64,000 nt of DNA from Spirochaetota bacterium (GTDB lineage Bacteria; Spirochaetota; UBA4802; JAFGDQ01). The stretch is taken from the NCBI GenBank assembly GCA_043803405.1, contig JAZDKB010000019.1:171840-235839 (forward strand), read 5' to 3'. Each line of letters opens with the position of its first letter. Positions within the stretch are counted from its first letter, which is position 1. Both the position numbers and the translations under genes were made by a program. The notes beneath the pieces are model-generated. The model saw only the letters and a program-made list of their open reading frames with translations, had not been told where the DNA came from and ran no database searches. Of the stretch, positions 2,952-39,085 are shown in pieces.

Positions 2952-4004
2952 ATGAAGTATGACGATATAGATGATTTGCTTATCAATATTGAAGAAAGTC
3001 AGGGACAATTAAAAGCTTCGAAAGAGGAACCGGCAAAGAAAGAATCGCCCAAAAAGCCGGAAAAACCAGCGGAATCCTCTAATATACATGAGACAACCGA
3101 TTTATCATTTCTTGAGAATGTAGATTCAAATGATCCGGCTGAAAAGAATAGGGAATTTGAAGAATCCCTTAAACAGGCTGTTGTCGAAAGCAAGGATGAA
3201 GAGCCGGACAAATCCGCAGAAAAAAAACCGGAAGAAAAACCCCGGCCAATAAAAACCGAAAAACAACCGGCGTTCACCAGTGTCGTGTTTAAAGTAAGAG
3301 GCACCAGGTCATGGAATACCCGCGAGCCGTACGTTATTGAAATAAGTGAAGAAAAGCTGGACTCGGATTATAAAGATTTAACCAGGACATTTTACTTTAT
3401 TAAAGAGCAGGATAGTGAACAGGCCGTTCAGAGTGAAATGAAAAGGGCCCTGTTTAAATTTATCAGGGGTTCAGGGAAAAATATTACTGATGAATATTCC
3501 GCATTTATCGGCAGCAGGCTGTTTTCGCTGGTGGCGGACTGGGGAACCGAATTCGGCTTTCAGAAAGATATGCTGCATCTGTTCGTCTATCATCTTGGCG
3601 TGTTGAGCCTTTATAAAATATTACTGCTGACGTTTCAGTCCGGAAAAACAGGATATTGTTTTAAAGCCTTGACCGGGAATAATGTGGTAAAATACATACC
3701 ACAGGAATTCATCAAAGAATTAATTTTAAAATGGCATAATGAAAATATAAACAGCAATGCCCTCCAATACGATGGAATTATTGAGTACAATGAATTAAAG
3801 CGGGTAGTTTCCAAAAAGTACTCGGCCGAATTCGAAAAGATAAACAGCAGGCTTGACGATCTGATAGCGAAATCAAATTTAAACGTAAGCCCGCCCGACA
3901 GGGAACAGATTTTAAAAAGTAAATGGGATGAGTGGTTCGGTAAAATTAATATTTTAATATATAACCGGTTTCTCGAACGCACAATATTTAAAATGGTTAA
4001 ATAG
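2952..4004 (+). CDS. hypothetical protein with an acidic/K/P-rich low-complexity N-terminus
   Basis: 350-aa ORF with an upstream aagg SD. The first ~110 aa are E/K/P-rich, predicted disordered. No recognisable catalytic motif. Confidence 0.5.
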   Translation: MKYDDIDDLLINIEESQGQLKASKEEPAKKESPKKPEKPAESSNIHETTDLSFLENVDSNDPAEKNREFEESLKQAVVESKDEEPDKSAEKKPEEKPRPIKTEKQPAFTSVVFKVRGTRSWNTREPYVIEISEEKLDSDYKDLTRTFYFIKEQDSEQAVQSEMKRALFKFIRGSGKNITDEYSAFIGSRLFSLVADWGTEFGFQKDMLHLFVYHLGVLSLYKILLLTFQSGKTGYCFKALTGNNVVKYIPQEFIKELILKWHNENINSNALQYDGIIEYNELKRVVSKKYSAEFEKINSRLDDLIAKSNLNVSPPDREQILKSKWDEWFGKINILIYNRFLERTIFKMVK

Positions 4005-6347: not shown

Positions 6348-7430
6348 ATGAAAGGTATTAATACAATTACAGACAGACGCCTGTTCCAGGATATATTGGG
6401 AAAATTCTTTTTTAATAAAAGCTGTTTTTTATATGGTAAAGAAGGCGCGCTGGAAGTTAAATTTAATAGATCTTCCGATGGGCTGATCGTGATAAAGATT
6501 CCTTTTTTTACGGAAGAGCCGACAAACTGTATCGCATTTACAAGACAGGGTGCTAATATAATATTTGTTTATCTGAAGTTATGCGGGAGAAAGGAAGACA
6601 ATATTTATATTTTTAATCCGGCTAAATTCCAGATCGCGGAAGCGGACAGGAAGGATGAAAGAAAGTCTCTTATAAAAAATACAAACAGTAAATCCGTTTT
6701 ATACATAACTAATTTTATTTCGGATAATATTATTAATAAATCGCTTAGCAGCCAGGCAGAAAAGCTGGACCGTATTAAGGAAATTATTGCGTACGATCAT
6801 TTAAATGAATATGAATATCTGAAATTATTTTTTTGCAATGAAGAAATGAATGATGCAAGAATGAAATATTTTAACAATAGCAGAATACCTATATTTATCC
6901 CCAATATACATTCGGAAAATGCAAATGATGAATTACATGAGTATTATAAAAATTACATTTATAATAATGATGAATATTTGAAAATTCACAAGGAAATTGT
7001 TTCTGAAGTTGCAGTGCCGATATTGTTTGATTCAAAAATACCTTATGGTTACATACAAGTGAATAAAACCGGTCCCTTGCCTACATCAACGATTTCAGTT
7101 ATGAAAAGAGTTGCAGCATTAACGGACGATATTACAAAAAAATCTAAATTGTTTTCCGTTTCCAGCGATAAATTACTTGTCTGGGATATTTCGGAAAAAG
7201 GTGTCGGCATAGCATTTAAGAATACAAAATATATTCCTTATTACAGAAGAGACAGCTTTGTATCGCTTGATTTGCTTCTTCCAAGATATAAAAAAGCTTC
7301 AATACTTGCGGACGTAAGGCATCTGGAAATGCTGGAGAATAAATTAATTAAAGTCGGGTTCGAGATAAAAGATATGGACACAGCAAGCAGGGATAATTAT
7401 GAGAAATTTCTCGGCTCAATCAGCGCATAA
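6348..7430 (+). CDS. hypothetical protein (N-terminal NxSxxG motif could indicate a degenerate PilZ-like fold, unverified)
   Basis: 360-aa ORF in a long intergenic context with AT-rich codon usage typical of this genome. No confident domain assignment. Confidence 0.45.
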   Translation: MKGINTITDRRLFQDILGKFFFNKSCFLYGKEGALEVKFNRSSDGLIVIKIPFFTEEPTNCIAFTRQGANIIFVYLKLCGRKEDNIYIFNPAKFQIAEADRKDERKSLIKNTNSKSVLYITNFISDNIINKSLSSQAEKLDRIKEIIAYDHLNEYEYLKLFFCNEEMNDARMKYFNNSRIPIFIPNIHSENANDELHEYYKNYIYNNDEYLKIHKEIVSEVAVPILFDSKIPYGYIQVNKTGPLPTSTISVMKRVAALTDDITKKSKLFSVSSDKLLVWDISEKGVGIAFKNTKYIPYYRRDSFVSLDLLLPRYKKASILADVRHLEMLENKLIKVGFEIKDMDTASRDNYEKFLGSISA

Positions 7431-12535: not shown

Positions 12536-12667
12536 TTTTAATTCCTTATTATTATTGTATAAATTACTTTATCAGTAGGCACTGCATAAAAAGTTCCATT
12601 ACGGATGATTCTTTTGATGGCTTTTTGATTCTTACGGAAATCCTGTAATCCTCAGGATTATCGGAGG

Positions 12668-12740
12668 CGCGCCCGGCAGGAGTCGAACCTGCGACGCACG
12701 GATTCGAAGTCCGACGCTCTATCCACTGAGCTACGGGCGC
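12668..12740 (-). tRNA. tRNA-Arg (anticodon UCG)
   Basis: Hand-folded cloverleaf on the minus strand: acceptor GCGCCCG/CGGGCGC, D-stem GCTC/GAGC, anticodon stem-loop with U33 and UCG at 34-36, a 5-nt variable loop, T-arm GCAGG-TTCGACT-CCTGC and discriminator G. CCA is not encoded. Confidence 0.85.
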
Positions 12741-19493: not shown

Positions 19494-21098
19494 ATGATAA
19501 TCAAATCTGGAATTTCAGCAGTAACAGTTTATAACGACAGGGCAGAGGTTACAAGAACTGCGTCGGAAAATCTTGATAAGGGCGAGCATGTGCTCATTTT
19601 CGATTTTCTTCCTGAATACATTGAACCGAACAGCGTGCAGGTTAGGGGCAGTGGGAACGCCATGCTTAAGGACGTTAAATTCAAGACAGTGTATTACGAA
19701 GAGCTTCCGGACCCGAACGCAAAGCTCCTGTTCGATGAGAAGCTGAAACTGGCAGAGGCGATCTCCGAGCTGGATGATAAGATCGCGCACGCTGAAAAAG
19801 AGAAGGGCTTTATTGAGGATATAGCAAAGCGCCTTACTGTTTCCACAGGCAAATCCGAAGCATTCGAATTTAATCCCGATAAATGGATTAAGATGGTGGA
19901 ATTCTACAGGATTAAAAACGACGAGCTCGATAAAGAGATACGCGCTGCAAACAAAGAGAAAAATATCTTAAAAAATAAAATGGAAAAAATTCTGAAAGAT
20001 ATTGCGGCGGTTGGGAGTACCAGGGAGAAAAGCAAAAACCAGGTTGAGGCGTCTGTTCTGATGAACGGGCAGGGCGCTTTGATACTTGATCTGATATATA
20101 TTGTGTACGGGCCTTCGTGGGCCCCTGTTTATGACCTGCGCGTTTCAACAGACAGCAAGAGTATGAATATATCCTACCATGCTTTAATACAGCAGAACAC
20201 GCAGGAAGACTGGAACGATGTAGACTTAAAGCTTTCTACGGCGCGGCCGAACATAAGCGGCAATCAGCCGGAGCTTACTCCATGGCATATAAGCGTTTAC
20301 CAGCCGGATTTATTCAGGAACGCGCCTTCTGCTTCTTTAGCAAAGGAAAAGAAAGCTGCCGCGCCTGCAAGGCAGATGTTTGATGAAGAGGCGTCCAGGA
20401 TTGCGGACATGGATTCGGTAGTAGGCGGGATGCCTGCTATTGCTCCTGCAGAAGCAACAGTGGAGACGGGCGCAACATCGGTGCTGTTTGCGGTCGGGGG
20501 AAAAAGCACGATCGGGAGCGGAAGCGACCAGCACAAGGTCACGATTTTAAGAAAGGATTTCTCCGCATATTTCCGCTACTCAAGCGTGCCGAAGCTCGCC
20601 CAGTTCGCATATTTAAAGGCAAAAGTAAAAAACGAGACCGAGTATCCGCTGCTCCCGGGCGAGAGCAACATCTTCCTTGATAATAATTTTGTCGCGAATT
20701 CGTATATGAAGCTGGCTGCTCCGGGTGAGGAGTTCTGGACTTTTCTGGGCGTTGATGAAGGGATGAAGATTGAGTACAAGTTTATCAATAAGTACGAAGC
20801 TACAGAAGGCGTGTTCAGCAAAACAAGCAAACTGATGTACGAATACCAGATCATCATTAAGAACAATAAAAAATCCGAGGCAGATGTTGTTGTCTGGGAT
20901 CAGATACCGATTTCCGGCAATGAAGAGATAAAGGTCACGCTTATCGAACCAGAATACAAAAAGGATTCGGACTCGCTCAAGATAAACGAGAACAAATATC
21001 TGGAATGGCTCTTTAAACCAAAGCCGGCGCAGGAGATCAAAGTGCAGTTTAAGTTCTCGGTCGAGTATCCGAAGAACATAGTCGTTTCGGGGCTGTAA
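19494..21098 (+). CDS. DUF4140/DUF4139 family protein (MuiA-like)
   Basis: 534 aa. The N-terminus (ISAVTVYNDRAEVTRTA...NSVQVRGSG) and overall architecture match the conserved DUF4140-DUF4139 hypothetical family, with a coiled-coil middle region. Confidence 0.55.
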   Translation: MIIKSGISAVTVYNDRAEVTRTASENLDKGEHVLIFDFLPEYIEPNSVQVRGSGNAMLKDVKFKTVYYEELPDPNAKLLFDEKLKLAEAISELDDKIAHAEKEKGFIEDIAKRLTVSTGKSEAFEFNPDKWIKMVEFYRIKNDELDKEIRAANKEKNILKNKMEKILKDIAAVGSTREKSKNQVEASVLMNGQGALILDLIYIVYGPSWAPVYDLRVSTDSKSMNISYHALIQQNTQEDWNDVDLKLSTARPNISGNQPELTPWHISVYQPDLFRNAPSASLAKEKKAAAPARQMFDEEASRIADMDSVVGGMPAIAPAEATVETGATSVLFAVGGKSTIGSGSDQHKVTILRKDFSAYFRYSSVPKLAQFAYLKAKVKNETEYPLLPGESNIFLDNNFVANSYMKLAAPGEEFWTFLGVDEGMKIEYKFINKYEATEGVFSKTSKLMYEYQIIIKNNKKSEADVVVWDQIPISGNEEIKVTLIEPEYKKDSDSLKINENKYLEWLFKPKPAQEIKVQFKFSVEYPKNIVVSGL

Positions 21099-33064: not shown

Positions 33065-33738
33065 TTTGTTTGCCTGTGTCCGATTATATGTTTAATCCGA
33101 GCAAACGTCTGTTATAGATGCTGTCCGGGATGATAACAGTGCCGGAATCTCATTAAATAGCAACTAATTTTCAATTTATATAATTAAAAAATTTTTAAAT
33201 TGGAAACCGCTTTTTATAATTTTGTTAATTTTTAAGATCAAGGATTATTCATATAATATGATACGGAATTTTTATATGAGATTTGTTATTCTGAGATATA
33301 ATAAAGGTTGAACCTGCATATTATTTAAAATTCAGCTTTAAAATAATCGGTTCTTAAAAAATTTGATAGAATTAATAAAAGTATACTATTATGATTTATT
33401 CTTGATAATTTTACGCTATCAATTTAACATTGCAATTGTAAATTTTTTTAAGTTGATTGTTTTTACCGGCTGATTATGGTGCTGCGCATTTTTAATATGT
33501 ATTCTTATGTGCAAGTAAATAAGTTTATTGCAGAACTGTTTTAAAAAAAATATCCCTCAAAATTATTTGATCCTGTTTTTCAACTGAATCAGAGTTGTTT
33601 TAGAGAAGGAATTTATTAATAAAAATTATGCATGCAAAGAATTTGTCGGAATTTAAAATAGTTTATATCCGGTTGAAACATCAGCGCCAATAAATCCCTA
33701 AAACAGGATTAATGTTTTGTTTTGCAAAGGAGAAAAAT

Positions 33739-34014
33739 ATGGAAGATAAAATAAAAGAAAACAGAAGAAAGATGGCGAAAGTGATCTCCAAGGCATGGAG
33801 CAGTGAATCGTTTAAAGAGAAGCTTATTTCAAATCCGAGAATGGTTCTGGCGGAAAACGGAATTACTGTGCCGGCAGATGTTGAATTAAAGGTTGTTGAG
33901 CAAACTGAAAAACTTATGTATATTGTTATACCATTTAGACCAGAGGATGCAGAGGGCGGGTCATGGATGACTGAAGACGATGCCTATGATATACCTTGTA
34001 TTCGTTGCGTATAA
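33739..34014 (+). CDS. RiPP precursor peptide, NHLP (nitrile hydratase leader peptide) family; leader ends ...PEDAEGG, predicted core SWMTEDDAYDIPCIRCV
   Basis: The leader KAWSSESFKEKLISNPRMVLAENGITVPADVELKVVEQTEKLMYIVIP closely matches the NHLP family consensus (KAWsD.aFk..Ll.nPkavLae.Gv.vPegvelkvve.t.dtlylVlP). The ATG at 33739 has an aggag SD. A GG motif precedes the Cys-containing C-terminus. Biosynthetic genes lie immediately downstream. Confidence 0.8.
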   Translation: MEDKIKENRRKMAKVISKAWSSESFKEKLISNPRMVLAENGITVPADVELKVVEQTEKLMYIVIPFRPEDAEGGSWMTEDDAYDIPCIRCV

Positions 34015-34191
34015 AGTTACTTTAGAGAAACAGGTCTGGTTATAAGTAGAGTTGTGTCTGTGATGTTTTTGACTGCTTTTTTAGTGAGGTGACCAGCTTT
34101 TAAAGGAATGAAACTCCATCATTTGTTATATTTAAGCTTTGGGTGTCCAGCACATCAACTATTCCTATATGCTTGCGGGGTATAAATTGTC

Positions 34192-35181
34192 GTGATTGCT
34201 TCCCTTGTGCCGCGCGAATTGAAGATTGAAATTACAAATAACTGCAATCTGCATTGTACCTTTTGTTCTCTGGGCGGGAAGATATCTTCGGATATTTGCT
34301 TTATGCCGGAGGAGGAAGTTCTGCGCTGGATAGACTGGGCAGTCGATAATAATATGCGCTATGTGCGTTTTACCGGCGGGGAGGCCATGATGCATCCGCA
34401 GATAGAGATGTTTTGCTATTATGCGTACCGGCTGGGACGCCTTATCATTCTGAATACTAACGGAATGGGGGATGACAAACTTTACAGGAAAATTCTTCGT
34501 GTTGTATACGATATGCGTATTAGCATGCCGACTCTTGATGCAGTGCGTATGGATAAACTTACCTGCGGAAAGGACGTGCTTGTAAAAAAGAAAAATGTGA
34601 TCGGACTGGCGCTGGAAACGGGTGTGCCACGCATAAGTCTTTTAACGCCTTTGCTGCCGGAGCTGCACGGAAGCCTGGAACAATTCGTTCTTTTTGTTAA
34701 AACTTCACCCAGGCTATTCTGGCTGCCGCTGCGTTACGAGTCTAGCCCGACAGCCCCCCGTCCATGGACGCAGTCAGATGCACAGGCCTTTGCCGAGGAG
34801 ATGGCTGATCTAATGCGCCGTTATCCGGAAAAGGCGAAGGGGATTTACCTGGCTATGCCGTTTTGCGGGATAAAGCCGGCAAGCCTTGGCGCATTCATAT
34901 TTCACGGGCGAACGGAGGATTGCGGCCCCTTCGCGGCCCTGAACGTTAATGTCAGCGGCCGTATGCAGGCATGTTTTAATGTGGGTGAAACGGACGGCAT
35001 CCCGGCGCTTTCCGAGATTTACAATTGCCCTGAAATATGCGCCTGTGCCTCTATTGATACATTGCCTGACGAATGCCGGTGCTGTAAGTATGTTGCCCGA
35101 TGCGCCGGAGGCTGCCGCAAGCCATATAGCATGGTCCGGCACGGCGGTCGGCAGATCGATTATCTGGCAGGATTTGTGTAA
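34192..35181 (+). CDS. radical SAM enzyme with C-terminal SPASM/twitch domain (RiPP maturase)
   Basis: CxxxCxxC at residues 17-24 (CNLHCTFC). The C-terminal Cys-rich region CPEICACASIDTLPDECRCCKYVARCAGGCRK fits the auxiliary Fe-S SPASM pattern. GTG start. Confidence 0.8.
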   Translation: MIASLVPRELKIEITNNCNLHCTFCSLGGKISSDICFMPEEEVLRWIDWAVDNNMRYVRFTGGEAMMHPQIEMFCYYAYRLGRLIILNTNGMGDDKLYRKILRVVYDMRISMPTLDAVRMDKLTCGKDVLVKKKNVIGLALETGVPRISLLTPLLPELHGSLEQFVLFVKTSPRLFWLPLRYESSPTAPRPWTQSDAQAFAEEMADLMRRYPEKAKGIYLAMPFCGIKPASLGAFIFHGRTEDCGPFAALNVNVSGRMQACFNVGETDGIPALSEIYNCPEICACASIDTLPDECRCCKYVARCAGGCRKPYSMVRHGGRQIDYLAGFV

Positions 35182-35218
35182 CAGGCCGGCTGCTCGTGCA
35201 TCATTTCATGGTATTGTT

Positions 35219-37483
35219 ATGAATTATTATAAAATTAAAACCGGTAAAGCCGTAGTAGCAGACGGCGACAGCTTGTTTCTGCTTGATGAAACAAGCCAAA
35301 AGAAAATTACATCAGAATTAATGTCCGGGTTGATGCGTCTCATCAGCCGTGGGCCTGCCGATGAAGAGGAACTCGTCTCTGCATTGGAAGATCGTTTTTC
35401 TCCGGTACGGATATACTATGCGCTTGTTCAGCTTGAAAAGCTGGGTTTAATAGTTAAAGATAATCGTCCTGAATCGCAAACTAATTTATTCAGAGAAAAA
35501 CTGTTTAGGCAGAATGGGAGCGATTGCCGGCAGCTTCGGAAACCTGCATTGCCTGTAAGGATATTTTCGATCGCAGGTGCGGAATCTTCTGCCGATGTTC
35601 TTTCTGAAGCGTTGAAACGTTCGGATCTGATGCAAGTTGAACGTCCGGATGACTGGCATACTGAAAAAATATCTTCCAACTGCCTTTACATTGCAGTAAC
35701 ACCCGATTATCTTGAACCGGAACTGGAGGCTTTTGGGCATCTGGCTTATAAAAGCGGAGTTCGCTGGCTGCCTGTTAAACTGGCAGGCGTGATACCGTGG
35801 ATAGGGCCATTGTTCGATAGGCAAGAGACAGCCTGTATTGAGTGCCTGCTTGACAGGGTGAAAGGGCACAGGCGGCTGGAAGCAAAACAAATCCGAGAGG
35901 ATGGAGCAAAGCAATCACTTCGTCTTTCAGCGGGACAGACTTTTTATTCGTTTGAAGTCGCAGCAGGGCTTTTGTCTGTGGAACTGGAAAAAATTGCGAC
36001 GGACTGTAAATCGGAATTAGCAGGCGGAATGTTTACAATCGATTTCCGGTCTTTTAAATTTGACAGGCATGCTTTTATAAAACGTCCGCAGTGTCCCGCA
36101 TGCGGAAATATTATTAAAGGAAATATAAAAACCGGAGTTTTTCCTGCTGAGGCGATGCATTTGCAATCGCGGGCAAAATCGGATCACCGTGACGGCGGTG
36201 AACGTATATGTTCGGCTGTTGAAACGCTTAAGAAATATAATCATTTGATCAGTCCGGTTACAGGCATTGTGGGAGAATTAAAACCAGTAGAAGGAATTCC
36301 GCCGTGTTTCGGCAGTGTGATAAGAAGCAGGTGGATTATCCGCAGCGGAGAAAGTGCGGAAAGAAAAAATAATGCGCGTTTATCGGCTACCGGTTTCAGC
36401 ACAGGCAAAGGGAAGACTGAGCAGCAGGCGCTGGCCAGCGCACTTGGTGAGGCTGTAGAGCGTTACTGCTCGCAGCACGAGGGCTATGAAACACGCATCC
36501 GAGCATCTTTCGCGGAGCTTGGCGACCCGGCGATTCATCCTTATAGCCTGATGGGCTTCAGCGAAAGGCAGTATTCTGAGCGTGAATCATGGCGCCGGAA
36601 AGGGGACACTTCGTATGTGCCTGAGCCTTACGAAGCTTCATTGCTGATTGACTGGTCGCCTGCATGGTCGCTGACTCAGAAGCGCTGGAAGCTCATCCCG
36701 AGCGCTTTTGCTTATTATTCCTACCCGCGTGATGGCGGCGGCGATATTTGCCGCGGGTGCAGCAACGGCGTGGCTGCCGGCAATTGCATAGAAGAGGCAA
36801 TAATGCAGGGCTTCTTTGAGCTGGTAGAACGCGATGCCACTGCAATGTGGTGGTATCATAAACTACGGAAACCATCTGTGGATTGGCTAAGTTTTGGCTC
36901 TTCTTTCACAGCTTCCGTTGATGCACAAATCAGGAAAATGGGGATGAAACTTGAAGTACTCGATCTGACAAACGATCTCGGCATACCCGTGTTCTCAGCC
37001 AATCTTTTTATGTGTGATGAAGGCAACAGTTTTATCTCAATGGGATTAGGCTGCCACTGTGATCCGTATATTGCGCTTGAGCGTGCTATAGCGGAGCTTG
37101 GACAGCTCTGGACACAAATGAATACGGACGATTCCGGCCGCAGATTTACAGAAAGCCTGCGCAGCATAGGATCATTTTTAAGGGCTGATCCCGGTCGGAC
37201 TCCAATGACATATTTCGATTTTCCAGAAAAACAGCGCAGTGATTTTCTCGACGACATTAATGATACCGTGCGGAACTTGAGCGAAAGGGGACTGGAAATG
37301 CTGGTGATGGATTTGACCCGCCCCGACGTCGGTTTCCCGGTAGCGCGTGTTATCGTCCCGGGCCTTATCCATTTTTGGCCGCGTTTCGGATGCAGCCGTC
37401 TATTTGAAGTTCCCAAAGCTGCAGGCTGGATTGACAAGGAAGCAGGTGAAGATGACCTTAATCCGGTGCCGTTCTGCTGGTGA
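35219..37483 (+). CDS. fused E1-like (ThiF-like, with RRE) / YcaO cyclodehydratase (PatD/TruD-type azoline synthase)
   Basis: N-terminal winged-helix/E1-like domain with two CxxC pairs (TACIEC, RPQCPAC), as in the Zn-tetrathiolate of PatD-like proteins. YcaO signature SATGFSTGKGKTEQQALASALGEAVERY. Start set at the ATG at 35219. The longer ORF from 34949 would overlap the rSAM gene by 230 bp. Confidence 0.85.
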   Translation: MNYYKIKTGKAVVADGDSLFLLDETSQKKITSELMSGLMRLISRGPADEEELVSALEDRFSPVRIYYALVQLEKLGLIVKDNRPESQTNLFREKLFRQNGSDCRQLRKPALPVRIFSIAGAESSADVLSEALKRSDLMQVERPDDWHTEKISSNCLYIAVTPDYLEPELEAFGHLAYKSGVRWLPVKLAGVIPWIGPLFDRQETACIECLLDRVKGHRRLEAKQIREDGAKQSLRLSAGQTFYSFEVAAGLLSVELEKIATDCKSELAGGMFTIDFRSFKFDRHAFIKRPQCPACGNIIKGNIKTGVFPAEAMHLQSRAKSDHRDGGERICSAVETLKKYNHLISPVTGIVGELKPVEGIPPCFGSVIRSRWIIRSGESAERKNNARLSATGFSTGKGKTEQQALASALGEAVERYCSQHEGYETRIRASFAELGDPAIHPYSLMGFSERQYSERESWRRKGDTSYVPEPYEASLLIDWSPAWSLTQKRWKLIPSAFAYYSYPRDGGGDICRGCSNGVAAGNCIEEAIMQGFFELVERDATAMWWYHKLRKPSVDWLSFGSSFTASVDAQIRKMGMKLEVLDLTNDLGIPVFSANLFMCDEGNSFISMGLGCHCDPYIALERAIAELGQLWTQMNTDDSGRRFTESLRSIGSFLRADPGRTPMTYFDFPEKQRSDFLDDINDTVRNLSERGLEMLVMDLTRPDVGFPVARVIVPGLIHFWPRFGCSRLFEVPKAAGWIDKEAGEDDLNPVPFCW

Positions 37484-37486
37484 GAA

Positions 37487-38860
37487 ATGAGCGAATCAAA
37501 GGATATAATTGAAACAAATATGCAAGCATCTAATATTTTTTTCTCCGTAAGGTTGCGCGATGATATTATTGCAGACCGTCCGGGGAACGGGCGAATCATA
37601 TTTATTAAAAACGGGATTAAATGTACGGATATTCCGGCGGACCATCCGCTTATCGAATCTTTGATTGCCAAATGGGTCACAGAGGCGACAATTGACCAGG
37701 AAGCCTCATCGGCATCCAATCCTTCAGTCATATATTATATTTTCGAAAAGCTGTTCTCCCTCGGCCTCCTTAAGGCACGATGCACACTTAACGAAAAATC
37801 CCTGTTCTCTGTTGTACCTGCCCCGGAGTGGCAGGCATGGCAGGGAAAGCTGCCTGCATCAGCGCATAGGCTTTCGCCATGCTTATGCCTACGGCAGAAT
37901 GAGCATGATTTTATTCTGGAGATGCCGCTTTCACAAAAGAAATGCATTATACATGATGGAAGGTGCATTATCTGGCTAATGGAGATTGTACAAGGAAGCA
38001 TTTCCATGCCTGTAAATGATGCAGCCCGTTCAGCATTTTATCTGGCATTATGGATGATGAATGCCCTTATATGTGATGAGGATTCCGATCCTTCCTGGGA
38101 GTTCCACGACTTGCTGTTCTTTCATCATTCAAGCATCGGCTTTCATGATGATGCTACCGGAGCGACCTGCAGGTTTAAGGATAAATCTTTGCCTGAGCCG
38201 CTTTTAAAGGCGATCACGGGGTTTTGTGTTTCGCTTCCTGAACCCGATGAGCGGCTTATGAAAAAGCTGAATACGCCTTTTGCCGAAGTGCTTGCAAAGC
38301 GCCGCAGCAGCCGTAATGTATGCGGATCACCGGCCCTCGAAGAAATAGGCGCTTTGCTTTTTGCATCAGCCCGCATTCAGAGCGTCAGGGACGATTCTAC
38401 GCATAGTTATTTTGTTTCATTGCGGCCTTCTCCCAGCGGTGGTGCATTGCATTCCATTGAAATATATTTATTTGTACGTCAATGCACAAATCTTGAAAGC
38501 GGAGTCTGGCGCTATGATCCAGGCCGGCATCAGGTGGAATCTGTTGCAGCGGACAATGAATTATTTGAAGCCTACATGAACAGCAATCCGTATGCTGCGG
38601 GACCGAACACAGCGCCTCCGTATCTTCGATTAGTGATGACATCTCGTTTTCAGCGGAACTCGTGGAAATACGAAAAGATCGCCTACCGTCTTGTTCTGCA
38701 GGATCTGGGCTGCCTGTATCAGACTATAAGTCTGGCAGCTGCAGCTCTGGGACTGGCAACCTGCATTCTCGGCGCAGTTGAAGCAAAGCGCCTTGGAGAG
38801 ATAATGAAGCTGGAACCTCTTATCGAACCGGTCATCGGGGAGATGATGTTATCGTCTTAG
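37487..38860 (+). CDS. SagB/ThcOx-type FMN-dependent dehydrogenase (azoline oxidase)
   Basis: C-terminal nitroreductase-like fold with LAKRRSSRN...LRPSPSGGALHSIEIY, typical of SagB-family TOMM dehydrogenases. Starts 4 bp after the cyclodehydratase stop. Confidence 0.8.
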   Translation: MSESKDIIETNMQASNIFFSVRLRDDIIADRPGNGRIIFIKNGIKCTDIPADHPLIESLIAKWVTEATIDQEASSASNPSVIYYIFEKLFSLGLLKARCTLNEKSLFSVVPAPEWQAWQGKLPASAHRLSPCLCLRQNEHDFILEMPLSQKKCIIHDGRCIIWLMEIVQGSISMPVNDAARSAFYLALWMMNALICDEDSDPSWEFHDLLFFHHSSIGFHDDATGATCRFKDKSLPEPLLKAITGFCVSLPEPDERLMKKLNTPFAEVLAKRRSSRNVCGSPALEEIGALLFASARIQSVRDDSTHSYFVSLRPSPSGGALHSIEIYLFVRQCTNLESGVWRYDPGRHQVESVAADNELFEAYMNSNPYAAGPNTAPPYLRLVMTSRFQRNSWKYEKIAYRLVLQDLGCLYQTISLAAAALGLATCILGAVEAKRLGEIMKLEPLIEPVIGEMMLSS

Positions 38861-39085
38861 CAAAAGTCTATTTCTCCAGCTCATTCAATGAATATGTTTT
38901 AATCTACTGAAGTTGGAGTTTAATATTTATCTTAAGATTAAAAGTTATTCTTTGAATAAGGGTACATTCTAAATTATCCGGTTTCTTCTTAAATTATTTT
39001 ATTTGTATTTTTTAATTTTTTATATTACCATAGATATTGATTCATGGCACTCCAGTTCTCTTTAGATTATTTCCTGGAGTTAATA

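Follow-up and report, generated by a model that had tools for sequence, protein, structure and literature searches.

Within a 64,000-nucleotide stretch of a Spirochaetota bacterium genome (the window; contig JAZDKB010000019.1, positions 171,840 to 235,839, numbered here from 1), four co-directional genes on the + strand (33739-38860, about 5.1 kb) encode, in order, a precursor whose leader is of the NHLP (nitrile hydratase leader peptide) type, a radical S-adenosylmethionine (SAM) enzyme, a fused YcaO heterocyclase and a SagB-type oxidase. We consider it likely that these genes form a functional, self-contained operon for a peptide that is made on the ribosome and modified after translation (RiPP), in which thiazole formation and a radical tailoring step act on a single NHLP precursor. 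A sequence-only reading of the window had proposed the same four co-directional genes, and all four open reading frames (ORFs) were found on the + strand where it had placed them. The set of NHLP precursor, fused YcaO and SagB is of a known kind, and only the radical SAM family is uncharacterised; judged from the sequences recovered, this family appears to be small, to lie always beside an NHLP precursor, and to have neither a curated model nor a solved close relative.

The precursor is a member of the NHLP family. It scores 71.9 bits against TIGR03793, the NHLP model (curated cutoff 50.9), which bears out the leader type proposed from the sequence alone and supplies the NHLP/Nif11-type leader that characterises proteusins, and it scores 49.8 bits against PF02979 (NHase_alpha; cutoff 27.2). 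It is 100% identical to a protein (P0071) that NCBI already names 'NHLP leader peptide family RiPP precursor [Spirochaetota bacterium]'. The NCBI version starts 27 nt further upstream, at 33712, has 100 residues and begins MFCFAKEKN; we favour the 91-residue start at 33739 because a GGAG sequence (33729-33732) is placed 6 nt upstream of it and most orthologues are also about 91 residues long. The small ORF, whose conservation the sequence-only reading had taken as the gauge of its translation, is conserved in at least 26 relatives and is under purifying selection, with a pN/pS of 0.27-0.30 (pN 0.18-0.23, pS 0.60-0.77) against four orthologues. In an AlphaFold 2 model, helices within residues 2-39 (pLDDT 84-90) and a beta-hairpin at residues 51-63 make up an ordered portion that extends to about residue 66, and the chain is disordered beyond it, including the C-terminal tail, with pLDDT below 50 from residue 78. 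The final 14 positions of the NHLP hidden Markov model (HMM), 64-77, find no match in the precursor.

LynD/TruD/PatD-type enzymes are ATP-dependent cyclodehydratases, and the third gene encodes a full-length homologue of LynD (E 1.9e-125 over residues 15-752). From residue 15 its N-terminus aligns with the RiPP recognition element (RRE) and E1-like domains of LynD, and both CxxC pairs, the GKGKT…ERY signature and the C-terminal NPxP align as well. The protein scores 300.4 bits against TIGR03604 (cutoff 219.25), 297 bits against PF02624, and 119 bits against TIGR03882 (cutoff 36.9), the model for the E1-like/leader-binding portion, and the YcaO assignment made for 35219-37483 from sequence alone thus stands. 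ThcOx/SagB-type enzymes convert azolines into azoles. The fourth gene, which starts 3 nt past the YcaO stop codon, encodes a protein scoring 162.7 bits against TIGR03605 (cutoff 78.4), in agreement with its earlier designation as a SagB-type dehydrogenase dependent on flavin mononucleotide (FMN); it also matches PF00881, comes just under the cutoff of PF22767 at 26.4 bits, and aligns with CyaGox over residues 125-455 (E 1.3e-37).

The second gene encodes a radical SAM enzyme, as the sequence-only reading had concluded from its CxxxCxxC motif (C18, C22, C25): it scores 53.4 bits against PF04055, and T61-G-G-E64, the GGE motif of the partial TIM-barrel core, is invariant. Its start is supported by the N-termini of 22 homologues in our family alignment (A1), and since the cluster motif begins as early as residue 18, the enzyme has no N-terminal RRE. 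The pattern of C-terminal cysteines listed in Table 1 is invariant across 23 homologues. No eighth cysteine follows C308, which means that the last cysteine of the SPASM pattern is missing; because H317 and D323 are nearly invariant, the second auxiliary cluster (AuxII) may have a non-cysteine ligand, with these two residues as candidates, or an open coordination site. Open coordination sites are seen in thioether synthases, and this AuxII is reminiscent of them. The AlphaFold 2 model of the enzyme is confident (pLDDT 91.8), and its closest structures are SuiB, SkfB, BlsE, anSME, PqqE and CteB (TMq 0.59-0.74), the nearest of them being 16-18% identical in sequence; the predicted fold supports a peptide maturase of the SPASM/twitch type.

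How widely is this arrangement shared? The radical SAM enzyme has about 70 relatives (clusters at 90% identity) that are 47-72% identical to it. In a profile search of 1.84 billion representatives the family is compact: about eight 50%-identity clusters lie above 270 bits, and the proteins that come next, some of them fragments or multidomain fusions, score about 220 bits or less. Among the next-nearest relatives carrying the radical SAM domain are P0108 and P0109 (about 820-915 residues), which include fusions to HD phosphohydrolase domains, and giant proteins of 1098-1406 residues (P0106, P0116, P0124) with three or four radical SAM/SPASM modules, one of them with a B12-binding domain. Naming the family after such remoter relatives was considered and rejected, as none reaches a curated cutoff.

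Related loci were collected by a contig scan with the radical SAM alignment (two true family loci among the matches listed; its motif, TGGE[AP]T[LM]HP, is common to radical SAM enzymes at large) and by a scan of metagenome contigs with the precursor alignment (nine useful loci among the matches listed, the rest being mostly unrelated NHLPs or true nitrile hydratases), and the counts are lower bounds, not a census. An NHLP gene lies within about 2 kb of the radical SAM gene at every other distinct locus recovered (14 of 14, at least 14 in all). The order precursor, radical SAM, YcaO, SagB recurs at no fewer than six independent loci in other organisms (L001, L004, L005/L095, L086, L091, L094), with enzymes 50-71% identical to those of the window, which settles in the affirmative whether the four-gene architecture proposed from sequence alone occurs elsewhere. 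L096/L097 keep the order with one gene inserted, and three partial contigs (L090, L092, L093) agree with it as far as they reach. When every ORF of 12 loci was compared with every other, only these four families were common to the loci; the exceptions were ABC ATPases of a generic kind, shadow ORFs on the antisense strand and a small number of neighbours confined to subgroups. The four-gene arrangement is beyond chance. Its identified hosts belong mostly to anaerobic lineages (a Spirochaetota metagenome-assembled genome (MAG), Syntrophus, Desulfovibrio and Humidesulfovibrio), together with a Candidatus Ozemobacteraceae MAG, and among the matches listed the closest full loci come from Syntrophus MAGs.

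Comparison with sister branches shows that what is conserved is the pairing of radical SAM enzyme with NHLP precursor; YcaO and SagB form a module that is often present across the family but can be dispensed with. Both L087 and Desulfovibrio inopinatus (L002) have radical SAM enzymes 48-51% identical to that of the window, two or three cysteine-free NHLPs, no SagB, and an unfused YcaO of 610-618 residues that is only 24-26% identical to the window protein. L088, with a radical SAM enzyme 63% identical, has no YcaO, and its cysteine-free precursor ends …GGSVIGDLDVRDAAY. The fused LynD-type YcaO and SagB are absent from these three loci, where tails lack cysteine, and occur together with cysteine-containing tails in the window type, in L096 (…SMVICY) and in L084 (…AFCECFSI, …AACFCCAITGNP); that the two enzymes track cysteine-containing tails fits thiazole formation.

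Some features of these sister loci are worth recording in their own right. In L087 (9098-9623) and L002 (9221-10138), tails after …E-R-L-A-A are as short as SAF or SVF, and another, HWPYIYVI, has no Cys, Ser or Thr; the unfused YcaO beside such tails, where SagB is missing, could perform thioamide or amidine chemistry. L096 (4658-6427), L088 (6304-8004) and L087 (11840-13525) also encode a membrane protein of 561-589 residues, 33-66% identical across the three, with HExxH and a weak Peptidase_M50 signal, which is a probable leader protease or exporter of the sister branches; no homologue of it is present in the 64-kb window. L084 (1-16993, a contig of GCA_900218215.1) is a composite locus with three NHLPs, a LynD-like YcaO, a SagB and a radical SAM enzyme of the window family, accompanied by a GNAT protein, a second radical SAM enzyme of 486 residues with an NHLP of its own alongside, a third radical SAM enzyme that is B12-binding, a sigma factor and an ABC exporter. 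From this content, the window family evidently also works within multi-enzyme NHLP 'toolkits'.

Which part of the precursor do these enzymes modify? The sequence-only reading had ended the leader at Gly73-Gly74 and taken the 17 residues that follow as the core. The window and most of its close orthologues do have the GG, but the boundary drawn at it is doubtful: the pair becomes SG in P0075 and GV in P0078 and is absent from L001, L004 and L005, and when all precursor types are aligned with MAFFT the window segment SWMTEDDAYDIP falls opposite the segment at the C-terminal end of the leader (…ELSDEQLTNVAGG) in ordinary NHLPs, the stretch SW..EDD.YD.P aligning with the leader end (…ELSDEQL..VAGG) of typical family members. 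Because the GG is variable and the tail is aligned with an NHLP leader end, the real core may be only the last five or so residues, C-I-R-C-V, and the tail at residues 75-91 probably combines a recognition segment and the true core. The tail, whose family consensus is GGSW[QM][CT]EDD[CAT]YD[ILTP]PC[IAV]RC[SNVH], is unusually conserved: far from being hypervariable, it is maintained across metagenomes as strongly as the leader. Among 27 sequences R89 and C90 never vary, and the final residue of the window type varies among V, S, N and H. C87 is conserved in at least 90% of sequences and its sole replacement is Ser, in P0091; as Ser can be heterocyclised too, both sites keep a residue open to heterocyclisation. 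We also considered whether E79…Y83 in the tail is a PqqA-like E-x3-Y motif and rejected the idea, since D or G replaces the Glu and H or D replaces the Tyr. Taken together, the conserved tail, the single precursor gene of the window cluster and the lack of immunity or export genes argue, on comparative grounds, for a product of fixed structure with a specific function and not a hypervariable bacteriocin.

In the pathway that we propose, the NHLP leader of the precursor (residues 1 to about 66) is folded and its C-terminal tail is flexible. With its N-terminal winged-helix/E1-like domains, the LynD-type heterocyclase would dock onto either the leader or the proximal part of the tail and, with ATP, cyclodehydrate Cys87 and Cys90 to thiazolines, which the SagB/ThcOx-type FMN oxidase would then aromatise to thiazoles; each site would lose 20 Da, and the two together 40 Da. 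A further radical modification of the same tail, one that is independent of cysteine, would come from the SPASM-type radical SAM enzyme, which has no RRE. We propose the thiazole part on the strength of what is known of the LynD and SagB families and of the precedent set by MprC and MprD on NHLP substrates; the cysteine-independent step we infer by elimination only.

Several points weigh against this pathway and should be set beside it. Gene identities, domain memberships, the conserved architecture and selection on the ORF are established, whereas enzyme activities throughout the family are predicted, as are the modification sites, the order of the steps, the radical chemistry, leader removal and the biological role. 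The classical GG cleavage mark is not conserved among orthologues. Neither the cluster nor the 64-kb window holds a leader protease, an exporter or an immunity gene, so that maturation and export are left unexplained. The C-terminal domain of the radical SAM enzyme, called SPASM-like from sequence alone, falls below the cutoff of TIGR04085 (19.5 bits, cutoff 27) and gives no match to PF13186, the Pfam SPASM model; a protein 72% identical to it (P0001) passes TIGR04085 at 30.0 bits, and the label thus draws on the invariant cysteine motif, on the fold and on evidence at the level of the family, the window protein itself giving no above-cutoff HMM match. No NCBIfam model comes near its cutoff on the enzyme, the best being MoaA (59 bits against 284), and with no curated or solved relative close by, its reaction is not derivable from homology. 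Finally, we found no published work on this radical SAM family in the full-text literature, the coverage of which leaves out most subscription journals.

Could the product be a classical bacteriocin after all? We give this limited credence. A C39-type ABC exporter encoded elsewhere would cut after Gly73-Gly74 and free the modified 17-residue SWMTEDDAYDIPCIRCV as an antimicrobial. The GG that the window shares with most close orthologues is the usual NHLP cleavage motif (PMC2887384), and at L001 an ABC/HlyD pair for type I secretion lies no more than 3 kb away. That exporter, however, adjoins an RTX-type protein and is not kept at other loci, and in the window neither the cluster nor the 64 kb around it encodes a C39 exporter. 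The drift and loss of the GG described above, a post-GG stretch that is as conserved as the leader and aligns with an ordinary NHLP leader end, the presence of only one precursor gene and the missing immunity gene all speak against such an antimicrobial.

A small-molecule or cofactor-like product is a comparably tentative alternative. Here the core would be C-I-R-C-V, the NHLP domain and the acidic W..EDD.YD.P would serve as scaffold or recognition element, and the outcome would be a small bis-thiazole of fixed structure, or a modified 91-residue protein, acting as a signal, metal binder or redox factor. The logic would parallel that of mycofactocin and pyrroloquinoline quinone (PQQ), in which a SPASM radical SAM enzyme works on the C-terminus of a peptide before a peptidase does. 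It is favoured by the placement of the SW…DIP segment opposite the leader end in the all-precursor alignment, by the invariant Arg-Cys pair in a tail strongly conserved across metagenomes, by sister tails that run only 1-3 residues past the aligned region (SAF, SVF, AAY) in branches that also have the M50-like protease, by the lack of export or immunity genes, and by hosts that are mostly anaerobes. The case is nevertheless purely comparative, the alignment of short, low-complexity tails is fragile, and tails of the window type do not end in one fixed residue. The mycofactocin and PQQ enzyme models also stay far below their cutoffs: PqqE (TIGR02109) gives 30 bits against 381 on the window protein, and MftC (TIGR03962) lies outside its 25 best-scoring NCBIfam models; where it was listed, for six proteins of the family or its remoter relatives, it reached 28-84 bits, the cutoff being 265.

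What reaction, then, might the radical SAM enzyme of the proposed pathway catalyse? We place two-electron or C-terminal oxidation first, C-alpha epimerisation second and a C-C or C-O crosslink third, and regard a thioether as unlikely. Oxidation heads the list because the fold is like that of anSME and the sister branches combine very short tails with a peptidase, a mycofactocin-like layout; epimerisation follows because of the proteusin precedent. A Trp/Tyr cyclophane crosslink was downgraded, as W76 and Y83 are missing from the orthologues in L001, L004 and L005.

It is rather doubtful that the enzyme is a proteusin-style C-alpha epimerase, which would place D-amino acids in the tail and make the product an azole-containing proteusin like nostatin A. 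NHLP leaders are a hallmark of proteusins and the radical SAM epimerase is their signature enzyme; nostatin A brings together an NHLP, a YcaO and a PoyD-like epimerase (PMC11583998). A reaction independent of side chains would suit the very different tails that this family serves, and C75 of the enzyme, invariant and outside the cluster motifs, is a candidate hydrogen-atom donor. Against this, the NCBIfam and PDB searches, made without a PoyD reference, showed no PoyD-type relationship; the enzyme has no N-terminal extension, its radical SAM motif starting at residue 18; and the structures that match it best belong to SPASM enzymes that crosslink or oxidise.

A thioether synthase of the sactipeptide or ranthipeptide type, which would link an acidic or other residue with Cys90 or Cys87 (as in a D84-x-x-C87 motif, in the manner of NxxC), is improbable. 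The fold does resemble those of SkfB and CteB, the tail has cysteines and several Asp or Glu residues, and AuxII apparently lacks its fourth cysteine ligand. Such enzymes, however, carry an N-terminal RRE, which is missing here, and need cysteine donors in every substrate, whereas family members 48-63% identical to the window enzyme serve cysteine-free precursors (L088, P0097, L087, L002); that the 63%-identical enzyme of L088 does so makes thioether chemistry unlikely for the family as a whole. The replacement of C87 by Ser suits heterocyclisation instead, and the StsB, PapB and AlbA models stay far below their cutoffs. The notion that the radical SAM gene lies there by chance, unrelated to the genes beside it, or that the operon is a decaying remnant or silent, can be dismissed as very improbable: the lack of a confident promoter or terminator call and of significant RNA structure in the gap between precursor and radical SAM gene would fit it, and it is contradicted by the NHLP gene found near the radical SAM gene at all 14 other loci, by four intact ORFs of full length relative to their homologues, and by the purifying selection on the precursor.

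Against the background of described systems, the claim of a novel system, which the sequence-only reading had attached to the whole locus, holds for the radical SAM family and does not extend to the rest. Clusters of NHLP, fused cyclodehydratase and, in some cases, dehydrogenase were described bioinformatically in 2010, including one in Syntrophus aciditrophicus SB (PMC2887384). As in the window, a TIGR03793 precursor lies there beside a TIGR03882/TIGR03604 fused protein, with or without a TIGR03605 SagB. Haft et al. stress hypervariable cores, multiple precursors and linked ABC/C39 exporters, and never mention a radical SAM partner (PMC2887384); the window, by contrast, has a conserved tail, no linked exporter of that kind and a radical SAM partner. 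Thiazole formation by an NHLP precursor, a LynD-like YcaO and an FMN oxidase (MprE/MprC/MprD) has since been reconstituted (PMC12455567). These and the srp azole systems from the Agarwal laboratory (PMC12455567, PMC12537861, PMC10858898) share with the window a structured NHLP leader, a cysteine-preferring, LynD-like fused YcaO with an RRE, and a separate FMN oxidase. They differ in that the precursors of Mpr number ten, with GG sites and differing cores (PMC12455567), where the window has a single precursor with a conserved tail, and in that a flavin brominase is the tailoring partner in srp, a role that a SPASM-type radical SAM enzyme takes in the window. As read from its sequence, the window tail shows no evident counterpart of the L(X)4L motif of MprE.

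The closest solved structures for the two azole enzymes are those of cyanobactin biosynthesis, LynD/TruD/PatD/MusD and ThcOx/CyaGox, with full-length homology that includes the zinc-binding CxxC pairs, GKGKT…ERY and the C-terminal Pro motif. Unlike cyanobactin loci, the window cluster has no macrocyclisation signals and no PatE-type leader, its precursor being an NHLP, and subtilisin-like proteases of the PatA/PatG kind are found neither in the cluster nor in its flanks. For nostatin A, YcaO and radical SAM enzymes from one cluster act on an NHLP precursor (PMC11583998), so that this pairing, too, is known. That cluster contains a PoyD-like epimerase, a B12-dependent C-methyltransferase, Lan-type dehydratases and a 30-residue core (PMC11583998), whereas the window enzyme is of the compact SPASM type and comes with none of nostatin's other partners. 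With SuiB, SkfB, CteB, anSME, PqqE and MftC the window enzyme shares the fold, CxxxCxxC and the auxiliary cysteine motif; it differs from these SPASM/twitch enzymes in lacking an RRE or PqqD partner (no PqqD-like gene occurs in the window cluster or among the genes common to related loci), in lacking the last cysteine of the 7/8-cysteine SPASM pattern, and in having NHLP proteins as substrates.

Table 1. Features of the four-gene NHLP cluster and its borders, in window coordinates.
Feature	Position	Strand	Basis
Precursor gene, 91 aa, NHLP-type leader	33739..34014	+	TIGR03793, PF02979, GGAG, selection
Structured NHLP leader domain, residues 12-69	33772..33945	+	HMM match; AlphaFold 2 model
C-terminal tail SWMTEDDAYDIPCIRCV, residues 75-91	33961..34011	+	Family consensus; AlphaFold 2 disorder
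C87-I-R89-C90, predicted thiazole sites and invariant Arg-Cys pair	33997..34008	+	Conservation
Radical SAM enzyme, 329 aa, GTG start, SPASM-type C-terminal domain, no N-terminal RRE	34192..35181	+	PF04055, alignment, AlphaFold 2
CxxxCxxC radical SAM cluster motif, C18, C22, C25	34243..34266	+	Sequence; invariant in A1
SPASM-type auxiliary-cluster Cys region, C225, C244-x11-G-x4-C261, C295-xx-C298-x5-C304-x3-C308	34864..35115	+	A1
Fused leader-binding/E1-like and YcaO heterocyclase, 754 aa, LynD/TruD/MusD cyanobactin type	35219..37483	+	TIGR03604, TIGR03882, PF02624, LynD
Thiazole/oxazole-modified microcin (TOMM) leader-binding/E1-like domain, residues 182-351, two CxxC pairs	35762..36271	+	TIGR03882; LynD alignment
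YcaO ATP-dependent cyclodehydratase domain, residues 396-752, GKGKT…ERY, C-terminal NPVPF	36404..37474	+	HMMs; LynD alignment
SagB/ThcOx-type FMN-dependent azoline oxidase, 457 aa	37487..38860	+	TIGR03605, PF00881, CyaGox
AT-rich intergenic region, about 28% GC, presumed promoter region	33065..33738	+	Composition profile
AT-rich inverted repeat, possible operon end	38880..38960	+	26-nt arms, 85% complementary, 29-nt loop; function inferred

The limits of the operon are less sharply drawn than its genes. A scan of the window for promoters and terminators gave nothing above expectation; upstream of the precursor, sigma-70-like matches of 10/12 or 9/12 at 33363-33392 and 33402-33430 amount to consensus resemblance only, and downstream, the inverted repeat begins 20 nt past the SagB stop at a place where the terminator scan made no call. 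Precursor and radical SAM gene are separated by an untranslated gap of 177 nt, which folds no better than shuffled sequence (z = +1.2) and gives no evidence of an attenuator. A search for island boundaries at the cluster found no flanking direct repeats and no adjacent tRNA. The flanking genes encode an EamA transporter, an MBL hydrolase, an immunoglobulin-like lipoprotein and an adenylate cyclase, and the genes flanking the window cluster, the first three included, have no homologues at the loci of the other clusters. In GC content the cluster lies 3-15 points above its flanks at every locus compared (window 0.478 versus 0.391; the others were L001, L004, L005, L086, L091, L094 and L096). We dropped this excess as a sign of recent horizontal transfer, since every locus shows the same contrast; it is a property of the cluster and by itself no proof of recent transfer.

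The rest of the window is an ordinary chromosomal context, with genes for FtsH, RecG, SerRS, MurA, KdtA, GroEL and a tail-specific protease, and a tRNA-Arg(TCG) at 12666-12740. An ORF at 19494-21098 (534 residues) encodes a DUF4139/DUF4140 protein, and two others, at 2952-4004 and 6348-7430 (350-360 residues), have no Pfam match at E<=1e-5.

In our reading of the field, new families of radical SAM peptide maturases tend to bring new bond-forming reactions, and the family described here, being small, cleanly delimited, tied to NHLPs, free of an RRE and without a curated model or structure, is a well-defined target for enzyme discovery. The four genes, at about 5.1 kb, suit direct co-expression, and the predictable thiazole part would serve as an internal positive control. 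The radical SAM enzyme could also show how an RRE-less enzyme reads a folded NHLP leader; the reading of such leaders has been taken up only lately, and to date for YcaO enzymes, halogenases and lanthionine synthetases alone (PMC12455567, PMC12537861). More speculatively, the locus might represent an undescribed RiPP class, found mostly in anaerobes, in which an RRE-less SPASM-type enzyme reads a folded NHLP directly and carries out a new, cysteine-independent radical reaction at the C-terminal end, with two thiazoles added by the cyanobactin-type enzyme pair to a five-residue core, C-x-R-C-x, to yield not a bacteriocin but a small molecule of fixed structure such as a cofactor, signal or metallophore by a logic like that of mycofactocin or PQQ; we put this forward as an idea that is more likely to need revision than to survive intact. 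The conserved tail and the lack of export and immunity genes suggest that the product has a physiological role in anaerobes rather than one in antibiosis.

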